A stretch of DNA of 64,000 bases from NCBI GenBank assembly GCA_017470645.1, contig JAFUYJ010000023.1, positions 34,767-98,766 of the forward strand, read 5' to 3'. A program made the translations under genes and the position numbers. Below the pieces are notes generated by a model. The model did no database searches. It had not been told where the DNA came from and was given only the letters and a program-made list of their open reading frames with translations. The stretch comes from Clostridia bacterium. GTDB taxonomy: Bacteria; Bacillota; Clostridia; TANB77; CAG-508. This document shows, one piece after another, positions 2,772 to 38,973 of the stretch (position 1 is its first letter; each line of letters begins with the position of its first letter).

Positions 2772-3657
2772 GAGAGTTATAGCTGTTATTGTTACATATA
2801 ATAGAAAAGAACTATTGAAAGAATCAATTGAAGCATTATTAAATCAAAACTATGAAAATTTAGAGATTCTAATTTGTGATAATGCAAGTACAGATGGTAC
2901 TAAGGAGTATATTTATAAATATATAGAAGAGAAAAAAATTATATATAGAAATACAGGTGCAAATCTTGGTGGCGCTGGAGGATTTAACTATGGAATGAGA
3001 GAAGCCTATAAATTAGGATGCGATTTTATGTGGATAATGGATGATGACTGTATTGTTCACAATGATACCTTAGAAAAATTAATAGAAGCAGATGAAAAAT
3101 TAAACGGAAACTATGGTTTTTTAGCTAGTAAAGTATTATGGAAGGATAATACAATTTGTAAGATGAATATACCTAAAAAAACATTTTCTACGTGGCTTAA
3201 GGATTTTGATACAGATTGTCAAGAGATTTCAATGGCTTCATTTGTGTCACTATTTATAAAGTCAGAAATAATAAAAGAATTTGGATTGCCAATAAAAGAA
3301 TTTTTTATTTGGACAGATGATTGGGAATTTACAAGAAGAATATCGAGAAAATATAAATGTTACTATATATCAAGTAGTGTGGTAACGCATAAGTCAAAAG
3401 TAAACATAGGTGCAGACATATCTACTGAAGATGAAGATAGATTATCAAGATTTAATTATTTGTATAGAAATGATATGGTTTTATATAGAAGAGAAGGAAT
3501 AAAAGGATGGGTTTTATTGCGTCTGAGATTAATAAAACATATTCTAAAGATAATAAAGTCAAATAAAACTAATAAAAAAGAAAGAATAAAAATAATATGT
3601 AATGCTATTAAAGAAGGAAAAAATTTTTATCCTGAAATAGAGTATGTAGGTGATTAG
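2755..3657 (+). CDS. Family 2 glycosyltransferase (rhamnosyl/galactofuranosyl-transferase-like)
   Basis: VIAVIVTYNRKELLKESIEALLNQ...ILICDNASTDGT...WIMDDD. Start placed at ATG 2755 after AGGTGA (2744-2749). Confidence 0.8.
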   Translation: MTRVSKRVIAVIVTYNRKELLKESIEALLNQNYENLEILICDNASTDGTKEYIYKYIEEKKIIYRNTGANLGGAGGFNYGMREAYKLGCDFMWIMDDDCIVHNDTLEKLIEADEKLNGNYGFLASKVLWKDNTICKMNIPKKTFSTWLKDFDTDCQEISMASFVSLFIKSEIIKEFGLPIKEFFIWTDDWEFTRRISRKYKCYYISSSVVTHKSKVNIGADISTEDEDRLSRFNYLYRNDMVLYRREGIKGWVLLRLRLIKHILKIIKSNKTNKKERIKIICNAIKEGKNFYPEIEYVGD

Positions 3658-3658
3658 A

Positions 3659-4681
3659 ATGAAAGATGATAAGATTGATATTGTTATAGCGTGGGTTGAT
3701 GGAAATGATTCTGACTGGATAAAGGAAAAAAATAAATACAGTGATAATCCAGAGTATGTAGATGGAATAAATGAGTCTAAATTTAGAGATTGGGGTATTT
3801 TTAAATACGTGTTTAGAGGAATTGAAAAAAATATGCCATGGGTTAATCATATCTACCTAGTTACTTGTGGACAAACTCCAGAATGGTTGGACACATCAAA
3901 CGAAAAGATTAGTGTAGTTAAACATGAAGAATTTATTCCACAAAAATATTTGCCTACATTTAGTTCGCATCCTATTGAATTGAACTTTCATAGAATACAA
4001 GGACTAAGCGAAAAATTTATATATTTCAATGATGACATGTTTGCAATAAATAGTTTGAAACCAGAAGACTTCTTTTATAATGAAAAGCCATGTGATTCAG
4101 CAGTATTAAACGTTCATTGTGTTCAAAATAGTAGTGCTATTTACAGTATTTGCGTTAATGATGTTGCAGTGATAAATGATCATTGTAATTTAAAGAGCCA
4201 GTTAAAACAAAACTTTAATAAATGGTTTAATTGGAAATATGGTATAAAAAATAATATACAAAATATCATTTTTTCAAATTGCCCTAGATTTCCTGGATTT
4301 AAACAATTTCATATTCCAACTCCTTTGCTAAAATCAATGTATAAGGAACTATGGGATAAAGAATATGAGATATTAAATGAAACGTCAGAAAACAAATTTA
4401 GAAGTAAACATGATGTAAATCAATGGGTTATAAGAGATTATCAACTAGCTACAGGGAATTTTAATCCTTCTAAGAGATATAAACTAGGAACTTTAATTGA
4501 TTTTGATAAGAATGAAATTACAGAAGAACTTGAAAAATGCAAAAAGATAATATTAGGTAATAGTTATAAATTAGTTTGTATAAATGATTCTGATAATATT
4601 CCAAACGTAGAACATGTAAAAAATGAAGTAAATAATTACCTAAATAATAAATTTCCACAAAAATCAAAATTTGAAAGGTAA
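3659..4681 (+). CDS. Stealth-family capsular hexose-1-phosphate transferase
   Basis: DIVIAWVDGNDSDWIKEK (CR1-like), FRDWGIFKYVFRGIEKNMPWVNHIYLVTCGQTPEWL (CR2-like), LPTFSSHPIE, YFNDDMF. Start at ATG 3659 after AGGTGA. Confidence 0.7.
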   Translation: MKDDKIDIVIAWVDGNDSDWIKEKNKYSDNPEYVDGINESKFRDWGIFKYVFRGIEKNMPWVNHIYLVTCGQTPEWLDTSNEKISVVKHEEFIPQKYLPTFSSHPIELNFHRIQGLSEKFIYFNDDMFAINSLKPEDFFYNEKPCDSAVLNVHCVQNSSAIYSICVNDVAVINDHCNLKSQLKQNFNKWFNWKYGIKNNIQNIIFSNCPRFPGFKQFHIPTPLLKSMYKELWDKEYEILNETSENKFRSKHDVNQWVIRDYQLATGNFNPSKRYKLGTLIDFDKNEITEELEKCKKIILGNSYKLVCINDSDNIPNVEHVKNEVNNYLNNKFPQKSKFER

Positions 4682-4698
4682 ATGGTAAATAATTTAAA

Positions 4699-5850
4699 AT
4701 GAAAAAGTTTAATCATATTCTAATATTTAATATTATTTTCATTTTAACATACATATATTTTCCTAATTATATTTTGAAAGGATTTGAAGATGTATTTAAT
4801 GTTATATGCTTATTAAGCTATATCATAATAATTATTATGTATTTAAAAAAATATGATTTCAAAATCCCTAATTTTACTGTAATACTATTTATTATGCAAC
4901 TAATTCCACTTATATCTACAATATATTGTGGAAATTATGATATGTTAGCTCAGGGTATTAAAGTATTATTGGCTTCTGTAAGTTTGCCAATGTTAATAAA
5001 ATATAATTACGATATAGACTTTAAAAGTTTTATAAAAGAGATAATGATAATATTTGGAATACTAGTTTCAGTAAATGTATTAACATTCTACATCTATTAT
5101 CCATCTATGACACAATTTTTATATTTCTATTTCTTAGGAAATGATAATGGCTCAATATATGAAACATTTTTATATATTTATATCAGTATAATCTATTATT
5201 TGCATTACAAGAAAAGAATACCAGTTTATTTTTATGTAATAGTAGCGTTTTTAATAAGTGGATATGTGTTTGTTAGATCAGGAAATTCAATGGTATGTTT
5301 ATTTGTAACTGCCACAGTTATATTGCTATCAAAAACTAATATATTTAAAAAAGTATGCAACAATGAGAAGATATTTATGGTGGGGTATATAGTATTCTTT
5401 TTATTAATAGTTATATTTAGAAATAATAGTGCTTTTATGAATGTAGTTTTAACTTTATTGGATAAAAACCCTACTTTTACTGGAAGGACGTTTATTTGGG
5501 ATTATACATTTAAATATATAAAATTACATCCACTAATAGGTAATGGATATGAAAATAGTGTTATACTAACTTCTAAAATTCATCAAGTTAAAGCACATAA
5601 TTTAATTCTCCAATACTTATATATGGGAGGCTTATTTACACTAACGTTATTTTTATATTTTGTATACAAAAATATAAAGATTATAAAAAAAGGTAAAATT
5701 GATAAAAGGGTAAAAGCTTTAATGCAATTTAGTATCTTTTTATTTTTTATTATTAGTGTATTCGATTATTATTATTATAAATACACTTTTATAATAATGA
5801 TATTAGTATATTATTATATAAATTTAGAAAGTGAAAATAAAAATGAATGA
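4699..5850 (+). CDS. Wzy-type polymerase / O-antigen-ligase-like polytopic membrane protein
   Basis: 383 aa with about 10 hydrophobic segments. Contains a loop ...AHNLILQYLYMGGLFTL typical of the O-antigen ligase/Wzy family. Lies inside the glycan locus. Confidence 0.6.
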   Translation: MKKFNHILIFNIIFILTYIYFPNYILKGFEDVFNVICLLSYIIIIIMYLKKYDFKIPNFTVILFIMQLIPLISTIYCGNYDMLAQGIKVLLASVSLPMLIKYNYDIDFKSFIKEIMIIFGILVSVNVLTFYIYYPSMTQFLYFYFLGNDNGSIYETFLYIYISIIYYLHYKKRIPVYFYVIVAFLISGYVFVRSGNSMVCLFVTATVILLSKTNIFKKVCNNEKIFMVGYIVFFLLIVIFRNNSAFMNVVLTLLDKNPTFTGRTFIWDYTFKYIKLHPLIGNGYENSVILTSKIHQVKAHNLILQYLYMGGLFTLTLFLYFVYKNIKIIKKGKIDKRVKALMQFSIFLFFIISVFDYYYYKYTFIIMILVYYYINLESENKNE

Positions 5851-6823
5851 TAAAATAAGTATAATAGTACCTATTTATAACAGTCAAGAAACATTAGATA
5901 GGTGTATAAACTCAATAATTAATCAAAGTTACAGAAATATTGAAATAATTCTTATAAATGATGGTTCTCAGGATAATTCGAAAAATAAATGTAAAGATTT
6001 TCAAAAACAAGATGATAGAATAATACTAATTAATAAAGAAAATACTGGTGTTTCGGACTGTAGAAATATTGGAATAAAGGAATCAACAGGAACGTATATT
6101 GTTTTTGTAGATAGTGATGATTATATAGAACAAGATTATATTTACAATATTTATGAAGAAATAAAGAAGAGTAACTGTAAGGTTGCTTTCTGTGGGATGA
6201 TAGAATCTAACATAAATAAGAATAAGTATAAAAATGTAAATTATTTGGATACAAAGAAAGTTTTAGATTTTAATGATTACATTGATGATTTTATAAATAC
6301 CACTCATTTTTCCATGGTATGGAAAGGAATTTATAAAAAAGAAACAGTAGAAAGCATTAAATTTGATGTTAAATTAAAGTATGGAGAGGACCTGCTATTT
6401 TTATTTAATGTTTTATCAAATAATAGAGTGTTATATTTTCCATATTGTGGATATCATTATGTAAATAATGAAAATAGTACTTTAAATGATATAAATGTAA
6501 TCAAAGCAAATCAGTATATAGAGAACAATATTTATGTATTTAATGAGATAAGAAAAAAATATCCAGAAAAAAAGGTAATAATAGAAAAGAGATTATTAAC
6601 GAAGTTAAATATTACCTTAAGTAGGTTAGCTAAAAGTAAAATATCTATTTTTGAATTCTCAAAGAATGCGAAAATGTTGAGAGAAAAAATATGTTATAAA
6701 CATATTATAATTAACCAAATAAAAAATGAATCCAAAGTAAACAAGGTAAAATTAAAAACAATTAAAAATGGACATTTTTATACATATTATATGTTGAATA
6801 AATTAATAAAAATTATAAAATAA
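5843..6823 (+). CDS. Family 2 glycosyltransferase
   Basis: ISIIVPIYNSQETLDRCINSIINQSYRNIEIILINDGSQDNS...VFVDSDDY. The ATG at 5843 overlaps the wzy stop, which suggests translational coupling. Confidence 0.85.
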   Translation: MNDKISIIVPIYNSQETLDRCINSIINQSYRNIEIILINDGSQDNSKNKCKDFQKQDDRIILINKENTGVSDCRNIGIKESTGTYIVFVDSDDYIEQDYIYNIYEEIKKSNCKVAFCGMIESNINKNKYKNVNYLDTKKVLDFNDYIDDFINTTHFSMVWKGIYKKETVESIKFDVKLKYGEDLLFLFNVLSNNRVLYFPYCGYHYVNNENSTLNDINVIKANQYIENNIYVFNEIRKKYPEKKVIIEKRLLTKLNITLSRLAKSKISIFEFSKNAKMLREKICYKHIIINQIKNESKVNKVKLKTIKNGHFYTYYMLNKLIKIIK

Positions 6824-6846
6824 AAAAGTATGGGGGATCATTAAAA

Positions 6847-7956
6847 ATGAGTAGCATAAAAATATTAACTTTTCACAGGGCTGTAAATTATGGGGCTATA
6901 TTACAGACATACGCTTTGGAAAAAACTCTAACAAAGCTAGGGTATAATGCAAATGTTTTAGATTATAGAGACAATGATATTGAATTACCATTTAAGATTA
7001 ATAATTACAAAGGTATGCCTTTTAATAAAAAAATTAAAAAGTTAATAAAAAACTTAATATTTTATAAAAAAATTAAACAAAGAAATAGTGAGTTTGAAAA
7101 ATTTATTAATCAAAATTTAAGAATAACCGAATCAGTAAATAATGAAGCAGAAATACTTAAAATGGAACAATCAGGAGATGTGTACATAACTGGGAGTGAT
7201 CAAGTATGGAATACATCAATAACTAAAGGTTTGTCAGACATATACACATTAAATTTTAAATCTAGTAATAAAAAAATATCATATGCAGCAAGTGTTGGAA
7301 ACATAGGATATATAGAAGAAAATGTAAGTGAATTTAAAAATAAAATATCACAAATAGATAAAATATCTGTAAGAGAGGATGACGCAAGGGAAACTTTAGA
7401 AAAGCTATTAGATAAAGATGTTGTAACGACATTAGATCCTACACTTTTATTATCTAAAGATGACTGGCAAGAATTAGTAAAAGAAAAGCAATATACAGAA
7501 AAAGAAAAATATATTTTTTCTTATTTTGTTACAAAAGATGAAGAAGAAATCAAAATAGTAAACTATTTATCGAAAAAAACTGGATTAAGAATTATACATA
7601 CAGAATTAATTAACCCAGGCTATAAAAATGTAATAAAAACAATTTTTAATAGTGGACCGATTAATTTCCTAGTTAATATAAAAAATGCAGAATATGTTGT
7701 TACAACATCGTTTCACGCAACAGTATTTTCAATAATTTTTAATAAAAATTTTTTTGTTATACCACATAAAAAGACGGGAGCAAGGGTAACAAATTTACTA
7801 AAAAAATTAGGATTACAAGATAGAATTTTTTCTAGTTTAGAAGATTTCAGTAAATATAATTATAATGAAGATATTGATTGGAATAGTGCTGAAGAAAAAT
7901 TAAATAAGGAAAAAGAAAAATCAATTTATTGGTTGAAAGAAGCAATAGAGAAGTAA
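6847..7956 (+). CDS. Polysaccharide pyruvyl transferase family protein
   Basis: ILTFHRAVNYGAILQTYAL...ITGSDQVWN...TTSFHATVFSIIF. Pattern matches the CsaB/WcaK-type pyruvyl transferase family. GGGGGA ribosome-binding site. Confidence 0.65.
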   Translation: MSSIKILTFHRAVNYGAILQTYALEKTLTKLGYNANVLDYRDNDIELPFKINNYKGMPFNKKIKKLIKNLIFYKKIKQRNSEFEKFINQNLRITESVNNEAEILKMEQSGDVYITGSDQVWNTSITKGLSDIYTLNFKSSNKKISYAASVGNIGYIEENVSEFKNKISQIDKISVREDDARETLEKLLDKDVVTTLDPTLLLSKDDWQELVKEKQYTEKEKYIFSYFVTKDEEEIKIVNYLSKKTGLRIIHTELINPGYKNVIKTIFNSGPINFLVNIKNAEYVVTTSFHATVFSIIFNKNFFVIPHKKTGARVTNLLKKLGLQDRIFSSLEDFSKYNYNEDIDWNSAEEKLNKEKEKSIYWLKEAIEK

Positions 7957-10536: not shown

Positions 10537-11694
10537 ATGAGTAATATATACCTAGATAATAAAATAAAAAGTTCATGTAATGGTTGTGGTGTATGTGCGT
10601 TAATATGTCCACAAAATTGCATAAAAATGATTGAAGATAGTGAGGGCTTTTTATATCCTGAGATAGATGAAAATAAGTGTATAAAATGTAATAAGTGTAG
10701 AAGATTGTGTAGTAATAACCCAATATCGAACGAGTTTAGCATACAAGCATATGCAACTAAAAATAAAAATAATGAACAAAGAAAACAAAGTACATCTGGG
10801 GGAATGTTTAAGATTCTTGCTGAATATGTTATTGAAAGGCAAGGTGTTGTCTTTGGGGTTGAAATAATGGATGATTTAAAAGTAGTACATGATTATGCAG
10901 AGAGTATGCAAGAATGTAAAAAGTTTAGTGCATCCAAATATGTTAGAAGCGAATTAAATAATTCTTATAGAAAAGTTAAAGAATTTCTAAATCAAGATAG
11001 ATATGTATTATTTACTGGAACGCCATGTCAAAATGAAGGATTAAGAAAGTTTTTAGGAAAGGATAGTAATAAATTAATTCTATGTGAGATTATATGCCAT
11101 GCCAATCCTTCACCAAAAGTATTTAACATGTATATTAGAAATATAGAAAACAAAACGGGAAAATCAGTAAAAATGATATATTTCAGAAGTAAAAATGCTG
11201 AAATGAATAATTCATCTTATATTGAATTAAAAGATGGTACAAAAATCGCGGATAAATTATATAACAAAGCATTTTCAAGTAAGCAACTTATAAATAGACC
11301 TTCATGCTATAATTGCAAATTTGTTGACGAAAATAGAAAGGCTGATTTTACAATTGGTGATTTTTGGGGAATAGAAAATATCTTCCCTGATTTCAATGAC
11401 AATAAAGGAATTTCTCTTTTGACTGTTAATACAAGTAAGGCAGAAAAAATATTTGAAGAAATAAAAGACAAAATGGATTATAAAAAGGTGGAAATAAAAA
11501 AAGCTTTTGAAAAAAATCATAACTCAAATGTTCCTATAAATCCACATAGAGAAATCTTTTTTGAAAAGATTGCTGCTGGGAAAATAAATGAAAACAATAT
11601 AATTAGGTACATGAAAAAATATACTCGCACAGCGTTATATAAAAAAGTTCTTAATAGAGTAAAAAATCATAATGTTCTTCTCAAAAAAGAATAA
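10537..11694 (+). CDS. 4Fe-4S protein of the coenzyme F420 hydrogenase/dehydrogenase beta-subunit (FrhB-like) family
   Basis: CNGCGVCALICPQNCI and CIKCNKCRRLC ferredoxin motifs, followed by an FrhB-like body (TSGGMF, FTGTPCQ, RPSCYNCKF). This family often accompanies pyruvyl transferases. Start moved to ATG 10537 after GGAG. Confidence 0.55.
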   Translation: MSNIYLDNKIKSSCNGCGVCALICPQNCIKMIEDSEGFLYPEIDENKCIKCNKCRRLCSNNPISNEFSIQAYATKNKNNEQRKQSTSGGMFKILAEYVIERQGVVFGVEIMDDLKVVHDYAESMQECKKFSASKYVRSELNNSYRKVKEFLNQDRYVLFTGTPCQNEGLRKFLGKDSNKLILCEIICHANPSPKVFNMYIRNIENKTGKSVKMIYFRSKNAEMNNSSYIELKDGTKIADKLYNKAFSSKQLINRPSCYNCKFVDENRKADFTIGDFWGIENIFPDFNDNKGISLLTVNTSKAEKIFEEIKDKMDYKKVEIKKAFEKNHNSNVPINPHREIFFEKIAAGKINENNIIRYMKKYTRTALYKKVLNRVKNHNVLLKKE

Positions 11695-11731
11695 ACAGTA
11701 TAAATGAACTAAGTTTCTAAATTATTAAAAC

Positions 11732-11761
11732 AAAAAACTCGCACAACAAGTGCGAGTTTTT
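11732..11761. terminator. Bidirectional rho-independent terminator closing the glycan locus
   Basis: AAAAAA-CTCGCAC-aacaa-GTGCGAG-TTTTT, between convergent genes. Confidence 0.75.
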
Positions 11762-11773
11762 ATAGTGTAGCAG

Positions 11774-12097
11774 TTACAATAGTGAATCAAAAGAGATGAT
11801 TCCATTATTCAACTCATCAGTTAAACGTATATAATCTTTCTTTGTGATTCTGGTTTTGTTATACCGTATTCTCATATTATCCTTGTTAGGACATACAGAA
11901 CGGATAGCTGCTGTGGCTAATTCATCTTCATACTCATAAATGTATCCAGATGAAAAACCACCAATAACATACGAACCATTGCTACCGTTTATTACACACA
12001 GATTAGGAGCTGATTTCAATTTCTTGTTTAATTCAGCTTCCGTTCCCTGAAAATAAAACGGCTGAGGAGCAGGTACATACGCATAACGATAGAACAT
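11774..12097 (-). CDS. Hypothetical 107-aa protein, divergent partner of the KAP NTPase gene
   Basis: GGGGGA sits 7 nt upstream of the ATG at 12095-12097 (MFYRYAYVPAPQPFYFQG...). No family recognised. The longer track ORF (to 12187) lacks a ribosome-binding site. Confidence 0.5.
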   Translation of the reverse strand: MFYRYAYVPAPQPFYFQGTEAELNKKLKSAPNLCVINGSNGSYVIGGFSSGYIYEYEDELATAAIRSVCPNKDNMRIRYNKTRITKKDYIRLTDELNNGIISFDSLL

Positions 12098-12295
12098 AAT
12101 CATGTCCCCCTTCATTAAAGTGTAAAATTGTTTTAACGAATGAACTATAGTGTACCACAAAAGTCTTGTTATGTCAACAATTGACAAGGGAATTATTAAG
12201 CAATTATTGATTGGGTTAAATCAATTTGTATTAAAAAAAATAAATATTATACTTAAAAAATATATCTTAAAAAACAGAAAAATATCCCTAAATCG

Positions 12296-12324
12296 TTGTA
12301 TTTTTCACAAAAATTTGATATACT
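12296..12324 (+). promoter_or_regulatory. Putative sigma-A promoter for the KAP NTPase gene
   Basis: TTGTAT, 17 nt spacer, TGaTATACT (extended -10), about 40 nt upstream of the ATG. Confidence 0.3.
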
Positions 12325-12365
12325 ATATAGTATCTAAAAATATTCGAAAGGATGTTGAATAAAAT

Positions 12366-15323
12366 ATGAGAGAAGAATTAAAAAAATACTTCATCAAAGA
12401 TATTGAATTAAATTCAGTAGATGAAGATATGTTAAGTTCAAAAGACGTAGCAGAAAACATCAATTTAATTATAGACAACACTAAACCATCATACGCCATT
12501 GCTGTAACAGGAAAAACAGGGCTTGGAAAATCATCTATAATTAATTTAGTTACAGAAAAATACGAAGATGATAAAGATAATTACAATGTTAGAAAAATAA
12601 ATGTATGGAAAGATGACGTTTCATTAAAAGATTTATTACAGACTAAATATATAACAAGTGTAGATAAAAATACAGCATATAACAATATGAACTCATCATC
12701 AAATGCTGTTAATATGAGTGCTGAACAAAGACAAGAGATATTAGATAGCATTTATAATCAATCACAAAGTCAAAATGAAAGTGAATTAAAAGAATCTAAC
12801 CAAGATGATTCAATAGATTACAACGAAATAAGCAACAATACAAAAAAATCAACACTAAAAACTTTAAAAGGTATTGGAATAGCAGTATTAACATTTTTAG
12901 TTTGCTTTTTAATAACAAGTATAATATTTGTATTAATGGAGTACTTAACAAGCGCAAATATATACAATAAAAACGATATATTCTTTGTTGAAAATACTTA
13001 TTTAAGCTACAAAGAAAATTTTGGTTTCATAATGGTATTTGCGATAGGTTTAACTTTAATTACGTATATATTAAGAACTCTAATTGCTACAAATCGTAAA
13101 AAAGCAAAATCTATCAAATCAGAAAAAGAATCAGAAATTGGAAATCAAGTAAATTCAGAATATTTAAACAGTAATATTAACTATAATGCTAATTCAGCTA
13201 ACAATTTAAATGAAAATGTATCAATGGTTCAAGTACCAGCACATGCAGTAGAATCTTTCATTGCTGTAAATAGCATTATTGAACCAAATAAAACAAATAT
13301 CATAGTTATAGAAGACGTAGACAAACTACCTTTATTTAAAATGCTTAAATCATTAGAAGATATAAAATATTGTAGTAATTATGAAAATACAATATTCATT
13401 GTACCATTTGATGAAGACGTTTTAAGAAAGGCAATTGAAGCAAGAAATGCATCTAAAACAAGTGCAACATACAAACCTTTAAAATTTGAAAAAGTTTTAG
13501 ATAAAATATTCCAATTCAAAGTTTATGTTCCACGTATTTCAAATGGAAATATAAAAGATTATGCATTAGATCTTGCAAATGACTCAATACCTGATTTCAT
13601 CGAAGATTATAGCAATAAAGATATGTTAAAAAGAGTTATAAAAAATGTATTAATTTATAAAAATGTTACAACACCAAGACATGTTAAGAAATTGATAAAT
13701 CAATTTGTTAATAATAAATTATTAATTACAGCAAGAGTTAAAAACGAAAAAGTTAATGAAGATATTATTAAAGCAAACAATTTTGATTTACAGTTAGCAA
13801 AATTAACTGTATTACAATCAGACTTTGACGAGTTTTATGATTTATTATTTGCAAACACTGAATATTTGGAAATATTAACAAAGTTATGTTGCTTAGAACC
13901 AGCTGAACTTGTAGATGTTTATGAAGGAATTGATGATGAATTAAAACCATTCTTTACAGTAAAATATAGACCATTAAGAAACTTCTTGAAACAAACAAGA
14001 AATTATGAAATTGAAAACATTGCAACTTTAATGTATCTAACAAAAATTAAAGCTGAAATGATGTTCAAAGATAAAAGTATATATAGCTATGTTTCAGGTG
14101 AAGAAGATGTAGCAGAACTACGTATTCAAGATGTTCTAGAGTTAGTGAAATCATTAGAAGATAAAGAGGATTTAAGTGAATTCGCATCTAACAACTATGA
14201 AAAATTATTAGAGAAATATGAAGAAAAAGCTTCAAACAAAATTTTCTATACTAATATGAATGAAATAACAGACGTTTTATATGATTATATTGATGAACCA
14301 CATTACACAAGATATTTGGAAATAGTTGCAAATAATTACAATTATTATCCAGAAGAAGCGTTTGAAATGTTTAAAAACACAGAAAATGAAATACCAGTAA
14401 GTGTAATGAATGTATTGTTTGAAAAAATGAATGAAGGATTATCAAAAGATAATTTTGATGAAACTTTTGATTTCCTAAGAGATAACTGTGATGCTTTCTT
14501 TGAAGAAGGTGGAAATGTATCTGGTTATGTCCAATTCTTAGTAGACAATATTGCGTTATCATCTAATCCAACAGAAGTAATAAATGAATTAGACGATAAC
14601 TTTACTAGAATAGGAAAAGTATATGACTTATATGAAAACATTCAAGGTTTAGAAAATTTAGATTATGATGTTGCATATAAATTTATTTCTAAATGCTTAG
14701 ATAATAGTGATTTAGATAAAATGGTTAACGTTATGAATAGCATTTTATCTAATGAAAATTCAGTTGAAAATTGCATAAGCATTGAAAAGAATATGAATAA
14801 TTACAATTTAGTTGATGTAATTGAATGCAATGTTGATGATATAATTGATTACGATTACATGAACAAAAAGAAAAATGCTAAACAAGAAGATTCAGAATCA
14901 GAAGATGAAGAGGATGTTGATGATAATAAAGATTCTGAAGAAAATGTAGAAAATGAAGCTGCATATGAAAATGCAAAATTCATTGAAGGAAATTATACAT
15001 TACTAAAGAATCTATTAGAAGTATGTAGTGTAAAACAACAATATTTAGCACCAGAAGATGTAATGAAAATAACTGAAAAAGCATTATTAAATAACAGTTC
15101 AGAATACTTATTAGAAGTATATGCTATGCTAAATAAATTCGACAGAATGTACTTCTATGAAATAAGAAGAGATTTCAATGATGTTATATACACAAATTTC
15201 CACAATACACAAAATGAGGATGTAAAAAATACAGCTGTAGAATGTACAAAATACTTCAAGAATACTCGTTTATTTAAAATGAAATTAACAGAGGACGAGG
15301 TAAAATACTATAGCGAGAATTAA
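12366..15323 (+). CDS. KAP-family P-loop NTPase with transmembrane helices inserted in the NTPase domain, plus a long helical C-terminal region
   Basis: Walker A GKTGLGKS at aa 49-56. Two hydrophobic helices at aa ~169-192 and ~219-241. Walker B IIVIEDVD at aa 312-318. Then IFIVPFDEDVLRKAIEA...KFEKVLDKIFQFKVYVP, which parallels the KAP conserved block. Confidence 0.65.
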   Translation: MREELKKYFIKDIELNSVDEDMLSSKDVAENINLIIDNTKPSYAIAVTGKTGLGKSSIINLVTEKYEDDKDNYNVRKINVWKDDVSLKDLLQTKYITSVDKNTAYNNMNSSSNAVNMSAEQRQEILDSIYNQSQSQNESELKESNQDDSIDYNEISNNTKKSTLKTLKGIGIAVLTFLVCFLITSIIFVLMEYLTSANIYNKNDIFFVENTYLSYKENFGFIMVFAIGLTLITYILRTLIATNRKKAKSIKSEKESEIGNQVNSEYLNSNINYNANSANNLNENVSMVQVPAHAVESFIAVNSIIEPNKTNIIVIEDVDKLPLFKMLKSLEDIKYCSNYENTIFIVPFDEDVLRKAIEARNASKTSATYKPLKFEKVLDKIFQFKVYVPRISNGNIKDYALDLANDSIPDFIEDYSNKDMLKRVIKNVLIYKNVTTPRHVKKLINQFVNNKLLITARVKNEKVNEDIIKANNFDLQLAKLTVLQSDFDEFYDLLFANTEYLEILTKLCCLEPAELVDVYEGIDDELKPFFTVKYRPLRNFLKQTRNYEIENIATLMYLTKIKAEMMFKDKSIYSYVSGEEDVAELRIQDVLELVKSLEDKEDLSEFASNNYEKLLEKYEEKASNKIFYTNMNEITDVLYDYIDEPHYTRYLEIVANNYNYYPEEAFEMFKNTENEIPVSVMNVLFEKMNEGLSKDNFDETFDFLRDNCDAFFEEGGNVSGYVQFLVDNIALSSNPTEVINELDDNFTRIGKVYDLYENIQGLENLDYDVAYKFISKCLDNSDLDKMVNVMNSILSNENSVENCISIEKNMNNYNLVDVIECNVDDIIDYDYMNKKKNAKQEDSESEDEEDVDDNKDSEENVENEAAYENAKFIEGNYTLLKNLLEVCSVKQQYLAPEDVMKITEKALLNNSSEYLLEVYAMLNKFDRMYFYEIRRDFNDVIYTNFHNTQNEDVKNTAVECTKYFKNTRLFKMKLTEDEVKYYSEN

Positions 15324-15332
15324 AACCTTTAA

Positions 15333-15397
15333 GAAAACTTTTGGGGACACTGGCAGAAAGTTCCAATGATATGGAATTTTTAGTCAGTGTCCCTTTT
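15333..15397. repeat. Family-B palindromic intergenic repeat (partial copy), acting as the terminator between the KAP gene and yabG
   Basis: GAAAACTTTTGGGGACACTGGCAGAAAG...TAGTCAGTGTCCCTTTTT. The left arm is nearly identical to the left arm of the element at 38823-38894. Confidence 0.7.
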
Positions 15398-15418
15398 TAA
15401 TCATAATTTTCAATTTTT

Positions 15419-16216
15419 TTATTTCAGTTTCTTGCCAAAAACTCCAATGCCACTTATTCCTTTTTGTCCATCACGCAATTCATTCTCAAAATCTCTTATA
15501 GTAATAAATTTATTTCGATCTGTAATTGCGATATTTGCAGCTACAATTAGAGGATCAACAAAATCTATCAAAATTCTAGCAGGGGAAGAAGCAAAATTAG
15601 CTCCTGCTTGTATAATTGCTTCATAATAACTTTGACATGCACCGGCAAAAATAGCTAAATTGTTGCTATAATGTTCCCAAGTTCTTGCAGCTAGAACAGT
15701 TTTTACAAAGTAAGCAGAATTTCTATAATTATATATATCATTAAAACCAGTACCTCGTTTAATCATACCATCATGACCTGTAATAATAAGCACATCCGGT
15801 TTATATCTATCTAACAAATTTCTTACTAATAAATGTTGTCTATTTTCCGCAATGTTCTTTACAATAGCGTTAATACCCATTTCTCTATAATATCTCATGG
15901 ATTTTTGAGAGTACCTACTATCACCATCTAAATGTAAAACTTTTCCGTAATCATTAGATTTCTTTAAACGTTTTGTATATTTATTTAAATACGAAAAAAG
16001 CCTGTCTTCAAGGCTTTGTACATTTGACTTTGCAATACGTTTATCAATAATTTCCAAATCTTTAACAGGACTATCAGCCTTAATTCTCATGGTTAAACCT
16101 TTTAAAATAGCAATTTGGGTATTGTCATTTAACTTTATAATTCTATCAACAATAAAAATAATATCTTTCCCATACGATATTCTTCCAACAATATCTCCCT
16201 TCTTAATTTTTTTCAA
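15419..16216 (-). CDS. yabG: Sporulation-specific protease YabG
   Basis: KGDIVGRISYGKDIIFIVDRI, VLHLDGD, VLIITGHD, IFAGACQSYYEAIIQAGANFASSPARILI. Collinear with B. subtilis YabG. TTG start. Confidence 0.85.
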   Translation of the reverse strand: MKKIKKGDIVGRISYGKDIIFIVDRIIKLNDNTQIAILKGLTMRIKADSPVKDLEIIDKRIAKSNVQSLEDRLFSYLNKYTKRLKKSNDYGKVLHLDGDSRYSQKSMRYYREMGINAIVKNIAENRQHLLVRNLLDRYKPDVLIITGHDGMIKRGTGFNDIYNYRNSAYFVKTVLAARTWEHYSNNLAIFAGACQSYYEAIIQAGANFASSPARILIDFVDPLIVAANIAITDRNKFITIRDFENELRDGQKGISGIGVFGKKLK

Positions 16217-16524
16217 CTACAACACATCCCTCCATTTTAAGCAGGTTATTATATAATATGTCGGAAAATGTCGAATGGTTAAAATACTTTTAGGGGGGAG
16301 AGAGAAACTTTGTGGGCGACTTACGAAAGTTTCCATCAAGGCTAAACATAATTCTGTAATATTTTTGTAATATAAATGAAACAAAAAAGTAACAATAAGC
16401 AAATCAAACCTTAAAACGCTTGAAAATACTGATTTGTAGCGTTTTGATTGCCACTCAACCATTTTGACAAAATTCGCCTCAGATGCTATAATCAAAGTAT
16501 CTTAAAGAAGTAGGTGATTGTTAA

Positions 16525-16830
16525 ATGATTTGCAAAAATGATATTTCAAATATTAAAGCAGATATTGAAGAAATGAGTGGCAACAAACAACGTATAATTG
16601 TTAAGGGGTCTCTAGGAAGGAGTAAATCGTTTGAAAAACAAGCTACAGTAGAGAAAGCATACCCTAATATGTTTATTGTTAAATATGATAATGAAGATAG
16701 GAATGCAACTTGGAGTTATATAGATGTATTAACTAGAACTGTAGAACTAGAAATTTTTGATGGAGAAAAATATAATCCATTATTACCACCACTAGCAGCA
16801 GACGTAAAAAGAGCAAAAGCAACATTATAA
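16525..16830 (+). CDS. veg: Veg (biofilm formation stimulator, DUF1021)
   Basis: ISNIKADIEEMSGNKQRIIVKGSLGRSKSFEKQATVEKAYPNMFIV...SYIDVLTRTVELEIF. The yabG-veg adjacency matches Bacillus. Confidence 0.8.
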   Translation: MICKNDISNIKADIEEMSGNKQRIIVKGSLGRSKSFEKQATVEKAYPNMFIVKYDNEDRNATWSYIDVLTRTVELEIFDGEKYNPLLPPLAADVKRAKATL

Positions 16831-38804: not shown

Positions 38805-38822
38805 CTTTAAATTTTGAAAAAG

Positions 38823-38894
38823 AGAAACTTTTGGGGACACTGACAAAAAGTATCAAACTTTTGAAACTTTTTGTCAGTGTCCCCAAAAGTTTCT
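38823..38894. repeat. Family-B palindromic intergenic repeat (complete copy) with 29-bp perfect arms
   Basis: AGAAACTTTTGGGGACACTGACAAAAAGT (38823-38851), 14-nt loop, ACTTTTTGTCAGTGTCCCCAAAAGTTTCT (38866-38894). Confidence 0.9.
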
Positions 38895-38973
38895 TATCCT
38901 TAATTTTAAACATGTTGATTTTTGTCTTATTTTTTAGTATAATATAACGAGTTATGAAAGGAAAGGAAATAAA

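Follow-up and report, generated by a model that had tools for sequence, protein, structure and literature searches.

The stretch of DNA analysed here (64,000 nucleotides, nt, of a Clostridia bacterium contig, called the window throughout) carries, between a glycan-synthesis locus and yabG, two divergent genes separated by a spacer of 268 base pairs (bp; 12098-12365). One encodes a membrane-anchored P-loop NTPase of 985 amino acids (aa), the main subject of this analysis, and the other a protein of 107 aa, which we call the small protein. On balance, the NTPase is probably a chromosomally fixed membrane protein resembling the anti-phage protein Tmn, and would serve in single-protein anti-phage (anti-invader) defence. 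The two genes and the recognisable parts of the NTPase are as follows.

12366-15323, + strand: NTPase gene, encoding the 985-aa membrane-anchored KAP/YobI-type P-loop NTPase (open reading frame, ORF, and Pfam)
12510-12533, + strand: Walker A motif GKTGLGKS, aa 49-56 (direct indexing)
12852-13091, + strand: transmembrane hairpin inside the P-loop domain (TM1 aa 163-197, loop aa 197-218, TM2 aa 217-242)
13299-13424, + strand: Walker B motif IIVIEDVD, aa 312-319, and a later strand IFIVPFDEDVL, aa 343-353
13716-15320, + strand: C-terminal all-alpha region, aa 451-985, about 35 helices, solenoid-like (AlphaFold2)
11774-12097, - strand: small gene, encoding the 107-aa protein (ORF)

An earlier note on this DNA had already described the 985-aa frame with a Walker A motif at aa 49-56, and direct indexing of the ORF agrees with it on both; the Walker B motif that it placed at aa 312-318 is present but runs to aa 319. 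Its disordered stretch rich in asparagine, serine and glutamine (N/S/Q) and its two hydrophobic helices ahead of Walker B are borne out by Kyte-Doolittle hydropathy and AlphaFold2, and its long helical C-terminal part with an acidic tract by an all-alpha AlphaFold2 model in which direct indexing places the tract at aa 840-864. The assignment to the KAP NTPases, with helices inside the P-loop domain, stands on a match to the Pfam profile that it named. The sequence also bears out the divergent 107-aa gene with its strong Shine-Dalgarno sequence and shared 268-bp region, and the bounding of the pair by a terminator on the left (11733-11761) and a palindromic repeat on the right (15339-15395), a second copy of which lies at 38821-38895.

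Architecture and family of the NTPase

The NTPase matches the Pfam family KAP_NTPase (PF07693) at 58.1 bits (E = 1.1e-15), where the gathering score is 20, and a single alignment, from aa 27 to 449 and model positions 3 to 288 of 293, spans the membrane insertion. Transmembrane helices inserted within the NTPase domain are reportedly the title feature of the KAP family as Aravind and colleagues described it in 2004. In 51 homologues the Walker A residues G49, G52, G54 and K55 and the Walker B residues D317 and D319 are invariant, as are many residues of the C-terminal region. The sequence IIVIEDVDK (aa 312-320) fits the acidic Walker B type hhhh(D/E)DxD(R/K), that is, the 'DDLDR'-type motif of KAP proteins; GKTGLGKS likewise fits the Walker A pattern GxxxxGK[ST], and IFIVPFDEDVL fits the hhhhxxD strand expected after Walker B. 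Further along, direct indexing locates KFEKVLDKIFQFKVYVP at aa 373-389.

In all homologues examined, the two Walker motifs are separated by hydrophobic helices. In the window protein the Kyte-Doolittle peaks reach 2.96 for TM1 and 2.11 for TM2, and the AlphaFold2 model (built with 51 homologues; mean predicted local distance difference test score, pLDDT, 78.6) turns the two segments into long helices at 157-195 and 219-254. The hairpin is flanked by two N/S/Q-rich linkers (aa 94-161 and 247-302) modelled as disordered, with pLDDT below 50. Lysines and arginines number 4 and 6 in the flanks on the cytoplasmic side and 2 in the connecting loop; the topology, with a 22-aa extracytoplasmic loop (aa 197-218, NDIFFVENTYLSYKEN), is drawn from hydropathy and this charge distribution only. 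As the hairpin interrupts the ATPase core, the two core halves would both be cytoplasmic, like the C-terminal solenoid, while a short conserved loop would face outward. This outward loop is the best-conserved segment of the protein within the clade, with a mean pairwise identity of 72% as against 61-63% for the NTPase core, 53-67% for the C-terminal region and 15-18% for the linkers.

The model is all-alpha from about aa 400 to 985, with pLDDT mostly above 90, and the helical region is broken by a low-complexity acidic loop (aa 838-866). We presume that this region is a sensor or scaffold arm. When the whole NTPase was compared with the Protein Data Bank (PDB) by Foldseek, the best matches were HEAT/ARM solenoids (RanBP5, E 2.3e-3; importin-beta, CAND1 and beta-catenin); none reached E <= 1e-3, and TM-scores were at most 0.18. 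A PDB sequence search with the NTPase profile returned generic P-loop matches only (ABC transporters, septins), and a search of PHROGs gave no match for the NTPase, the small protein or two paralogues of the latter.

For the NTPase, 84 homologues were recovered from 5.8 billion clusters, all of them matching KAP_NTPase with the exception of a 571-aa fragment (P0075). About 75 are full-length, 42-100% identical, and come without exception from uncultured gut Clostridia (rumen, rabbit, Hadza and other animal or human sources). The remaining nine are distant, mostly of about 1250 aa, align over the N-terminal half only and score about 120 bits on KAP_NTPase. One member of the clade (P0072, 43.4 bits) and two of the distant homologues (P0080 and P0081, 35 bits) also pass the 27-bit cut-off of the Pfam family YobI-ATPase (PF20693), which places the NTPase lineage at the border between KAP and YobI. 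Among the defence models, PifA of PADLOC matches the NTPase in part (E 1.8e-12, aa 305-446) and so does QatA (PADLOC, 5.6e-7; NCBIfam, 22.5 bits against a cut-off of 600). No qatBCD genes lie near the NTPase gene, whose neighbours are glycan-synthesis genes and yabG.

The NTPase gene beside yabG

To place the gene in its genomic context, we compared the contigs that carry homologues, scanned species-representative genomes with the YabG protein of the window, and ran tblastn with five window proteins on all loci (numbered L001 onwards). In each lineage with a readable downstream flank, 12 related lineages in all, the NTPase gene is syntenic with yabG-veg-sipL, and the order NTPase, yabG, veg, sipL, (yunB), rpsI, rplM is repeated in L001, L003, L010, L091, L097 and L100. 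Seven representative genomes have a yabG of 78-84% identity, and in six of them (L014-L018 and L020) the NTPase gene converges on it. The seventh, L019, is the sole member of the clade without the NTPase: the slot downstream of yabG is there occupied by an AbiEii toxin (Pfam, 6.4e-38) and its AbiEi antitoxin (11182-12827). In about 65 more distant relatives (yabG identity at most 69%; among them Clostridium sp. CAG:492, CAG:508 and CAG:567), no NTPase gene lies within 10 kilobases (kb) of yabG. Gene orientation changes as well: yabG, veg and sipL are co-directional in the distant relatives (L021-L089), whereas yabG is divergent from veg in the NTPase-bearing clade (L014-L020), so that a local inversion at the yabG-veg junction accompanies the presence of the NTPase gene. 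The gene is thus specific to a clade but fixed at its locus, and not an insertion peculiar to this genome.

Two observations on the genes downstream may be recorded here. The yabG gene is split into two overlapping ORFs, at differing positions, in two lineages (L091 4020-4818, L092 91-889, L097 1718-2513), for which a frameshifted pseudogene and an assembly error are both conceivable. A metagenome contig, L007, encodes NTPase, small, YabG and Veg proteins identical to those of the window, and its sipL is called as three fragments of 76, 314 and 121 aa (14649-16182), although the window and L009 have the gene whole, with 509 aa; either a strain-level disruption or an assembly artefact would account for this.

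Variability begins upstream of the NTPase gene and not at the NTPase itself. The upstream flank holds glycan loci of differing content in the window, L003 and L100, a gene for a 2376-aa choline-binding protein in L001, addA-spoVAC-ruvA-rarA in L014, L016 and L020, VanZ and Bro-N in L015, and a HEPN_Apea protein with an Rpn-like fragment in L092. In L093 (1932-9818) and L018 (14432-19941), three or four tandem large serine recombinases (535-565 aa) stand by genes of the small-protein family, which also adjoin a C-terminal fragment of UDP-glucose dehydrogenase; a soluble KAP protein of 668 aa is wedged into this region in L093 and matches the PADLOC candidate PDC-S49 (3.5e-48). In L005, a cassette of four genes (3309-7924) lies between the small gene and the NTPase promoter. 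Two of the four are small ORFs, the others encode an AAA_5/MoxR-like ATPase of 781 aa and a DUF2201_N metallopeptidase-like protein of 473 aa, and a UPF0236 transposase is found beyond them; the cassette is possibly a conflict system as well. The gene of a distant homologue, P0083, has a type I restriction-modification system on one side and an integrase/Mob element on the other. The neighbourhood upstream of the NTPase gene is therefore variable and rich in defence genes. The locus had been taken for a landing site of accessory genes, and the junction with a variable glycan locus is indeed there, but the NTPase gene is not the accessory element: it is syntenic and has a conserved promoter of its own.

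This promoter and the other signals of the locus are the following.

12296-12324, + strand: NTPase promoter; -35 TTGTAT (12296-12301), 17-nt spacer, extended -10 TGaTATACT (12316-12324)
12149-12177, - strand: small-gene promoter candidate; TTGACA, 17 nt, TACACT, with TG upstream of the -10 (from a scan with a chance-level count)
11733-11761: bidirectional intrinsic terminator; A-run, 12-bp stem, T-run (terminator scan and sequence)
15339-15395: long imperfect palindrome followed by TTTTT, between the convergent NTPase gene and yabG; folding energy -32.3 kcal/mol

The region is AT-rich, and a scan for sigma-70-like hexamer pairs found 36 where shuffled sequence predicts 35.1; because this count is at chance level, our promoter calls are based on conservation across species. 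An alignment of 13 orthologous loci gives the consensus TTG(A/T)A(A/T), 17 nt, TGnTATA(C/A)T upstream of the NTPase gene and, after it, a 5' leader, ATTCGAAAGGATGTTGAAT, that is likewise conserved and includes the ribosome-binding site; within the alignment ATTCGAA(A/G)GGATGTTGAAT is near-invariant (12342-12360 in the window). The promoter elements are kept whatever lies upstream, including in L005 with its inserted cassette, and the final 88 nt before the NTPase gene are 100% identical between the window and L100. Judged by its sequence, it belongs to the vegetative (sigma-A), constitutive kind of promoter and has an extended -10. A promoter for a sporulation sigma factor was considered and rejected, the conserved elements (TTGnnn, 17 nt, TGnTATAcT) being of the vegetative type; nor was a conserved sporulation-sigma motif seen upstream of the NTPase gene in the 13-locus alignment, which argues against co-regulation with the adjacent sporulation genes. 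The strongest match of the scan is another promoter, a perfect sigma-A consensus upstream of veg (16464-16492; TTGACA, 17 nt, TATAAT, upstream TG; 12/12). The candidate -35 of the small gene is kept in L100; a palindrome over it, TGTCAA..TTGACA, was rejected as an operator, its second arm not being conserved in L100.

Both ends of the pair carry hairpins. The terminator at 11733-11761 serves the adjoining glycan-locus gene (+ strand, stop 11694) and the small gene (- strand, stop 11774), and is the sole result of an Rfam search of 11600-16600, as a sub-threshold Leu_leader (28.6 bits against 50). The palindrome at 15339-15395 likely terminates transcription in both directions, and it belongs to a small palindromic element that is repeated in the window: the second copy (folding energy -52 kcal/mol) has the same arms, AAACTTTTGGGGACACTG(A/G)CA(A/G)AAAGT. 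The copy beside the NTPase gene is found neither in L100 nor at any other locus compared, and so looks like a recent species-specific insertion, similar to a repetitive extragenic palindrome (REP) or a miniature inverted-repeat transposable element (MITE), that doubles as a terminator.

Selection was measured between the window and L100, its closest available relative. The ratio of nonsynonymous to synonymous substitution rates (dN/dS) of the NTPase gene is 0.13 overall, 0.04-0.10 in the folded parts and 0.21-0.65 in the disordered linkers and the acidic loop; the small gene (0.07) and yabG (0.08) have similarly low values, and the NTPase gene and the small gene are thus both functional. KAP genes are said to become pseudogenes often; shorter homologues exist (851 aa in L014; 571-817 aa in P0071, P0075 and P0058), and evolution is nearly neutral in the linkers and the acidic loop (dN/dS 0.44-0.65). 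That the NTPase gene is a decaying, non-functional remnant is very improbable nonetheless, and the selection data refute it in practice: the purifying selection extends to all folded parts, the frame of 985 codons is intact, 51 sequences show no variation at the Walker A and B residues or at many positions of the C-terminal region, and promoter and leader are conserved.

In this close pair the NTPase proteins are 91% identical, as are the YabG proteins. Synonymous divergence (dS) rises across the locus (11774-16216), from 0.11 in the small gene to 0.35 in the NTPase gene and 0.63 in yabG, a hint of a recombination boundary within or near the NTPase gene. Between lineages, and in the same genomes, the NTPase retains 46-75% identity, as compared with 76-88% for yabG, 68-87% for sipL and 85-98% for veg. 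Its pairwise distances correlate little with those of sipL (Spearman 0.14) or yabG (0.27), sipL and yabG being correlated at 0.58. Some NTPase groupings agree with those of the neighbours (L014/L016/L020; L001/L017); others disagree, L003 and L091 having NTPases 75% identical and an unremarkable sipL. With ten loci and one close pair, the sequences are suggestive of episodic fast change in the NTPase, or of allele exchange among relatives, as in immune genes.

These data bear on a different explanation, namely that the NTPase is a lineage-specific host protein of the membrane (with an envelope, ion-homeostasis or sporulation-linked role) that became fixed beside yabG and is not immune at all. 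The syntenic position by yabG-veg-sipL-(yunB)-rpsI-rplM in every readable flank, the strong purifying selection on the folded domains, the arrival of the gene together with a rearrangement at yabG-veg and the lack of copies in phage and plasmid records all agree with it, and a best-conserved outward loop is what one would expect of a protein in contact with a conserved host component. We consider it unlikely because: (i), the promoter is of the vegetative type; (ii), the NTPase is dispensable, L019 having AbiE instead; (iii), about 65 related spore-formers lack it within 10 kb of yabG; (iv), from lineage to lineage it changes much more than the genes around it and, (v), the prokaryotic relatives by architecture or domain that this analysis met with and that have been studied experimentally (Tmn, EF_KAP, PifA and QatA) are all tied to phage defence or exclusion.

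The small protein and its family

The small protein has 107 aa, an isoelectric point of 8.5 and no transmembrane segment. Its gene has the ribosome-binding site GGGGGA 7 nt upstream of the start, and the start, MFYRY, is conserved among 20 homologues (M1 nearly invariant, Y3 invariant). AlphaFold2 models a mixed alpha/beta domain with a pLDDT of 94. Foldseek returned no significant match for it (best E 0.26 in the PDB and 0.12 in BFVD), it belongs to no family of Pfam, NCBIfam, PADLOC or PHROG, and a PDB sequence search with its profile found nothing. A word-indexed profile search of the 5.8 billion clusters recovers 22 members of the family, and a full hidden Markov model scan of 1.84 billion cluster representatives recovers 64. 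Three of these 64 (P0134, P0141 and P0142), which at first appeared to be long proteins with several copies of the domain, are artefacts of repetitive sequence and were discarded; all the others are stand-alone proteins of about 100-125 aa. The small protein is thus a real and novel family, restricted to this lineage, that resides in the variable flank and diversifies fast.

The earlier note had treated the two genes as one module, and an obligate two-gene system, with the small protein as regulator, inhibitor or specificity partner of the NTPase, merits consideration. The pair is adjacent and divergent in seven lineages (the window, L100, L001, L003, L018, L091 and L097), almost every context recovered for the small family falls within 5 kb of a window-type NTPase gene, and in L093, where small genes occur without such an NTPase alongside, a different KAP-family protein adjoins them. 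Both genes are under purifying selection and the small protein is confidently modelled as a folded domain of unknown function. We nevertheless hold this explanation to be improbable. The locus is vertically inherited as a whole, which makes adjacency weak evidence for partnership, and in four of the 12 lineages with readable flanks no small-family gene lies upstream of the NTPase, which is retained (L014, L016 and L020, with rarA-ruvA upstream, and L015, with VanZ). In L005 the small gene lies 5 kb away, beyond the AAA_5/DUF2201_N cassette, and the NTPase gene has kept its own promoter. Copy number varies from 0 to 3, with three paralogues in L091/L092 and two each in L097 and L093, in divergent tandem; within a locus they are only 21-47% identical (L091 8001-9573, L097 5561-6321, L093 997-1818), and in L091/L092 they are interspersed with the Rpn-like nuclease fragment and the HEPN_Apea protein. 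Nor has Tmn a conserved operon partner. Co-evolution of the two proteins was looked for in their pairwise identities and is not significant (Spearman 0.25, p 0.20, n=28, of which seven L005 pairs used an out-of-frame NTPase translation; the L005 row is to be ignored, the L005 NTPase identity by tblastn being 55%).

The module claim is therefore not supported: with the small gene absent from four of 12 lineages, present in 0-3 copies, separated in L005 and without the NTPase in L093, it is dispensable for retention of the NTPase and is an optional companion, not an obligate partner. A facultative functional link may exist. In a more elaborate form of it, to which we give little credence, the NTPase and a diversifying array of small proteins would make up a polymorphic two-component membrane immune system, undescribed for the KAP/YobI/Tmn group, in which the small proteins would set or gate the specificity of the NTPase, for example as decoys, inhibitors or adaptors for the solenoid arm. 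Whatever its relation to the NTPase, the small family is a separate and cheap target: the protein is 107 residues long, is modelled with confidence and matches no known fold.

A candidate defence protein and its known counterparts

We thus return to the NTPase as a probable single-protein defence, the reading that the analysis as a whole favours. By analogy with Tmn and the EF_KAP class, the NTPase would act alone; it would self-assemble in the membrane, its solenoid arm would recognise an invader-derived protein, and nucleotide turnover would be coupled to a membrane change that halts the infection. Of the phage-defence role suggested by the earlier note, with the small protein as regulator or partner, the first part is the best-supported reading while an obligate partner finds no support. 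The note had held that universal conservation of the locus among relatives would tell against such a role, and we find something half-way: a single narrow clade has the gene as a fixed feature, L019 within that clade has AbiE instead, and about 65 more distant relatives lack it.

Several observations weigh against a defence role. Defence genes are usually patchy and mobile, whereas this NTPase is confined to one narrow clade and always occupies the same locus. Neither it nor the small protein was found by tblastn in 50,697 phage records, and 72,556 plasmid records yielded one marginal match to the NTPase, a P-loop protein of Mesorhizobium. Despite the border position of its lineage, the window NTPase itself gives nothing at E <= 1 with YobI-ATPase (gathering score 27 bits) and no match at E <= 1 with the PADLOC Tmn model (PDLC02220), which eight homologues likewise fail to match at E <= 0.01. 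Its similarity to Tmn, as far as the sequences go, is confined to the NTPase core. The equal divergence of NTPase and yabG in the close pair does not support steady rapid evolution. Finally, a model of purely cytoplasmic sensing leaves the top conservation of the outward loop unexplained. The loop and the fixed locus could signal a Tmn-like protein domesticated for a host function, which is less likely still than the two-component system with the small proteins.

If the NTPase is an active defence, it would bring a clade of uncultured Clostridia from gut and rumen into the range of the membrane immune NTPases of the Tmn/EF_KAP type, and would be an example of such a gene fixed vertically and over a long time at one chromosomal site instead of moving on plasmids or islands. 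As the PADLOC Tmn model misses it, it would then also represent a subfamily that current detectors overlook. Present Tmn models account for neither the strongly conserved outward loop nor the long disordered tethers, and both features could guide mutagenesis. No current idea is overturned by these results, whose practical value lies in annotation and in the choice of candidates for testing.

The comparison with known systems begins with Tmn, a YobI-family protein detected by PADLOC in 5,915 genomes, 24% of them Bacillota (PMC13001434). Tmn has two transmembrane helices embedded within the P-loop domain, which is the YobI signature, and a C-terminal ARM/HEAT-like solenoid that senses RIIB of phage T2; it forms a decamer, has no conserved operon partner and, by the proposed mechanism, arrests infection through Mg2+ export and plasmolysis (PMC13001434). 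We used E. coli Tmn (L101:3926-7747) as reference and positive control (2056 bits on the PADLOC Tmn model): its Walker A lies at 61-68, its hydrophobic helices start at 157, and its Walker B, VVIFEDLDRF, lies at 271-279. The window NTPase presents the same order, with Walker A, some 90-110 residues, a two-helix hairpin, a Walker B of the form hhhhEDxD(K/R) and a long alpha-helical region modelled as a putative HEAT/ARM-like solenoid, and it too lacks a conserved operon partner. In hhalign, the clade profile aligned with E. coli Tmn over the Walker B region only (probability 72%, E 3.4e-5, 84 columns). The window NTPase is shorter (985 aa against about 1270) and has long disordered N/S/Q linkers and a strongly conserved outward loop as features of its own; Tmn is scattered over plasmids and chromosomes of many phyla, in contrast with one clade and one locus here.

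The second counterpart is the EF_KAP class: EF_KAP and three KAP proteins of gut Firmicutes each protect E. faecalis against phage (PLoS Biology 2026, PMC13552941). In addition to membrane helices, each has a large C-terminal part of unknown function, and protection depends on this part as well as on Walker B (PMC13552941). Compared by its published description, the class shares with the window NTPase a single gene, a Firmicute/gut host, membrane helices in a KAP_NTPase protein and an extensive C-terminal part lacking known domains. EF_KAP has one N-terminal helix and one within the domain, whereas the window NTPase has a two-helix hairpin in the domain; the C-terminal region of EF_KAP is of 322 aa, against about 535 in the window NTPase; and the class sits next to small serine recombinases on mobile DNA, unlike the chromosomally fixed gene of the window.

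Other NTPases are further away. PifA (T7 exclusion by the F plasmid) and QatA (the ATPase of QatABCD) share the KAP NTPase core, but their matches to the window NTPase are partial and far below family cut-offs, and PifA is reported to have no transmembrane helices. STAND/Avs-type NTPases and RdrA of RADAR are also P-loop NTPases followed by a helical-repeat arm with potential for ligand recognition. The window NTPase differs from them in having no NACHT/NB-ARC signature or effector domain and in carrying a membrane insertion, and the Foldseek match to the RdrA ring (8hr8_F; probability 0.97) is not significant (E 4.6e-2, TM-score 0.18).

The class to which the NTPase belongs is already known: Tmn dates from 2020 and its proposed mechanism from 2026, and the EF_KAP class was described in 2025-26. 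As membrane-inserted KAP/YobI proteins of both kinds have been validated experimentally as single-gene anti-phage proteins (PMC13001434, PMC13552941), the earlier note overstated the case in presenting an undescribed system. What is new here is a lineage-specific, clade-restricted NTPase that the PADLOC Tmn model misses, with a fixed locus, a conserved outward loop and long disordered tethers as unusual traits, and with an uncharacterised family of small proteins beside it. By its sequence features, the window NTPase is Tmn-like in architecture but lies outside the Tmn family as currently defined, as a KAP member at the KAP/YobI border.

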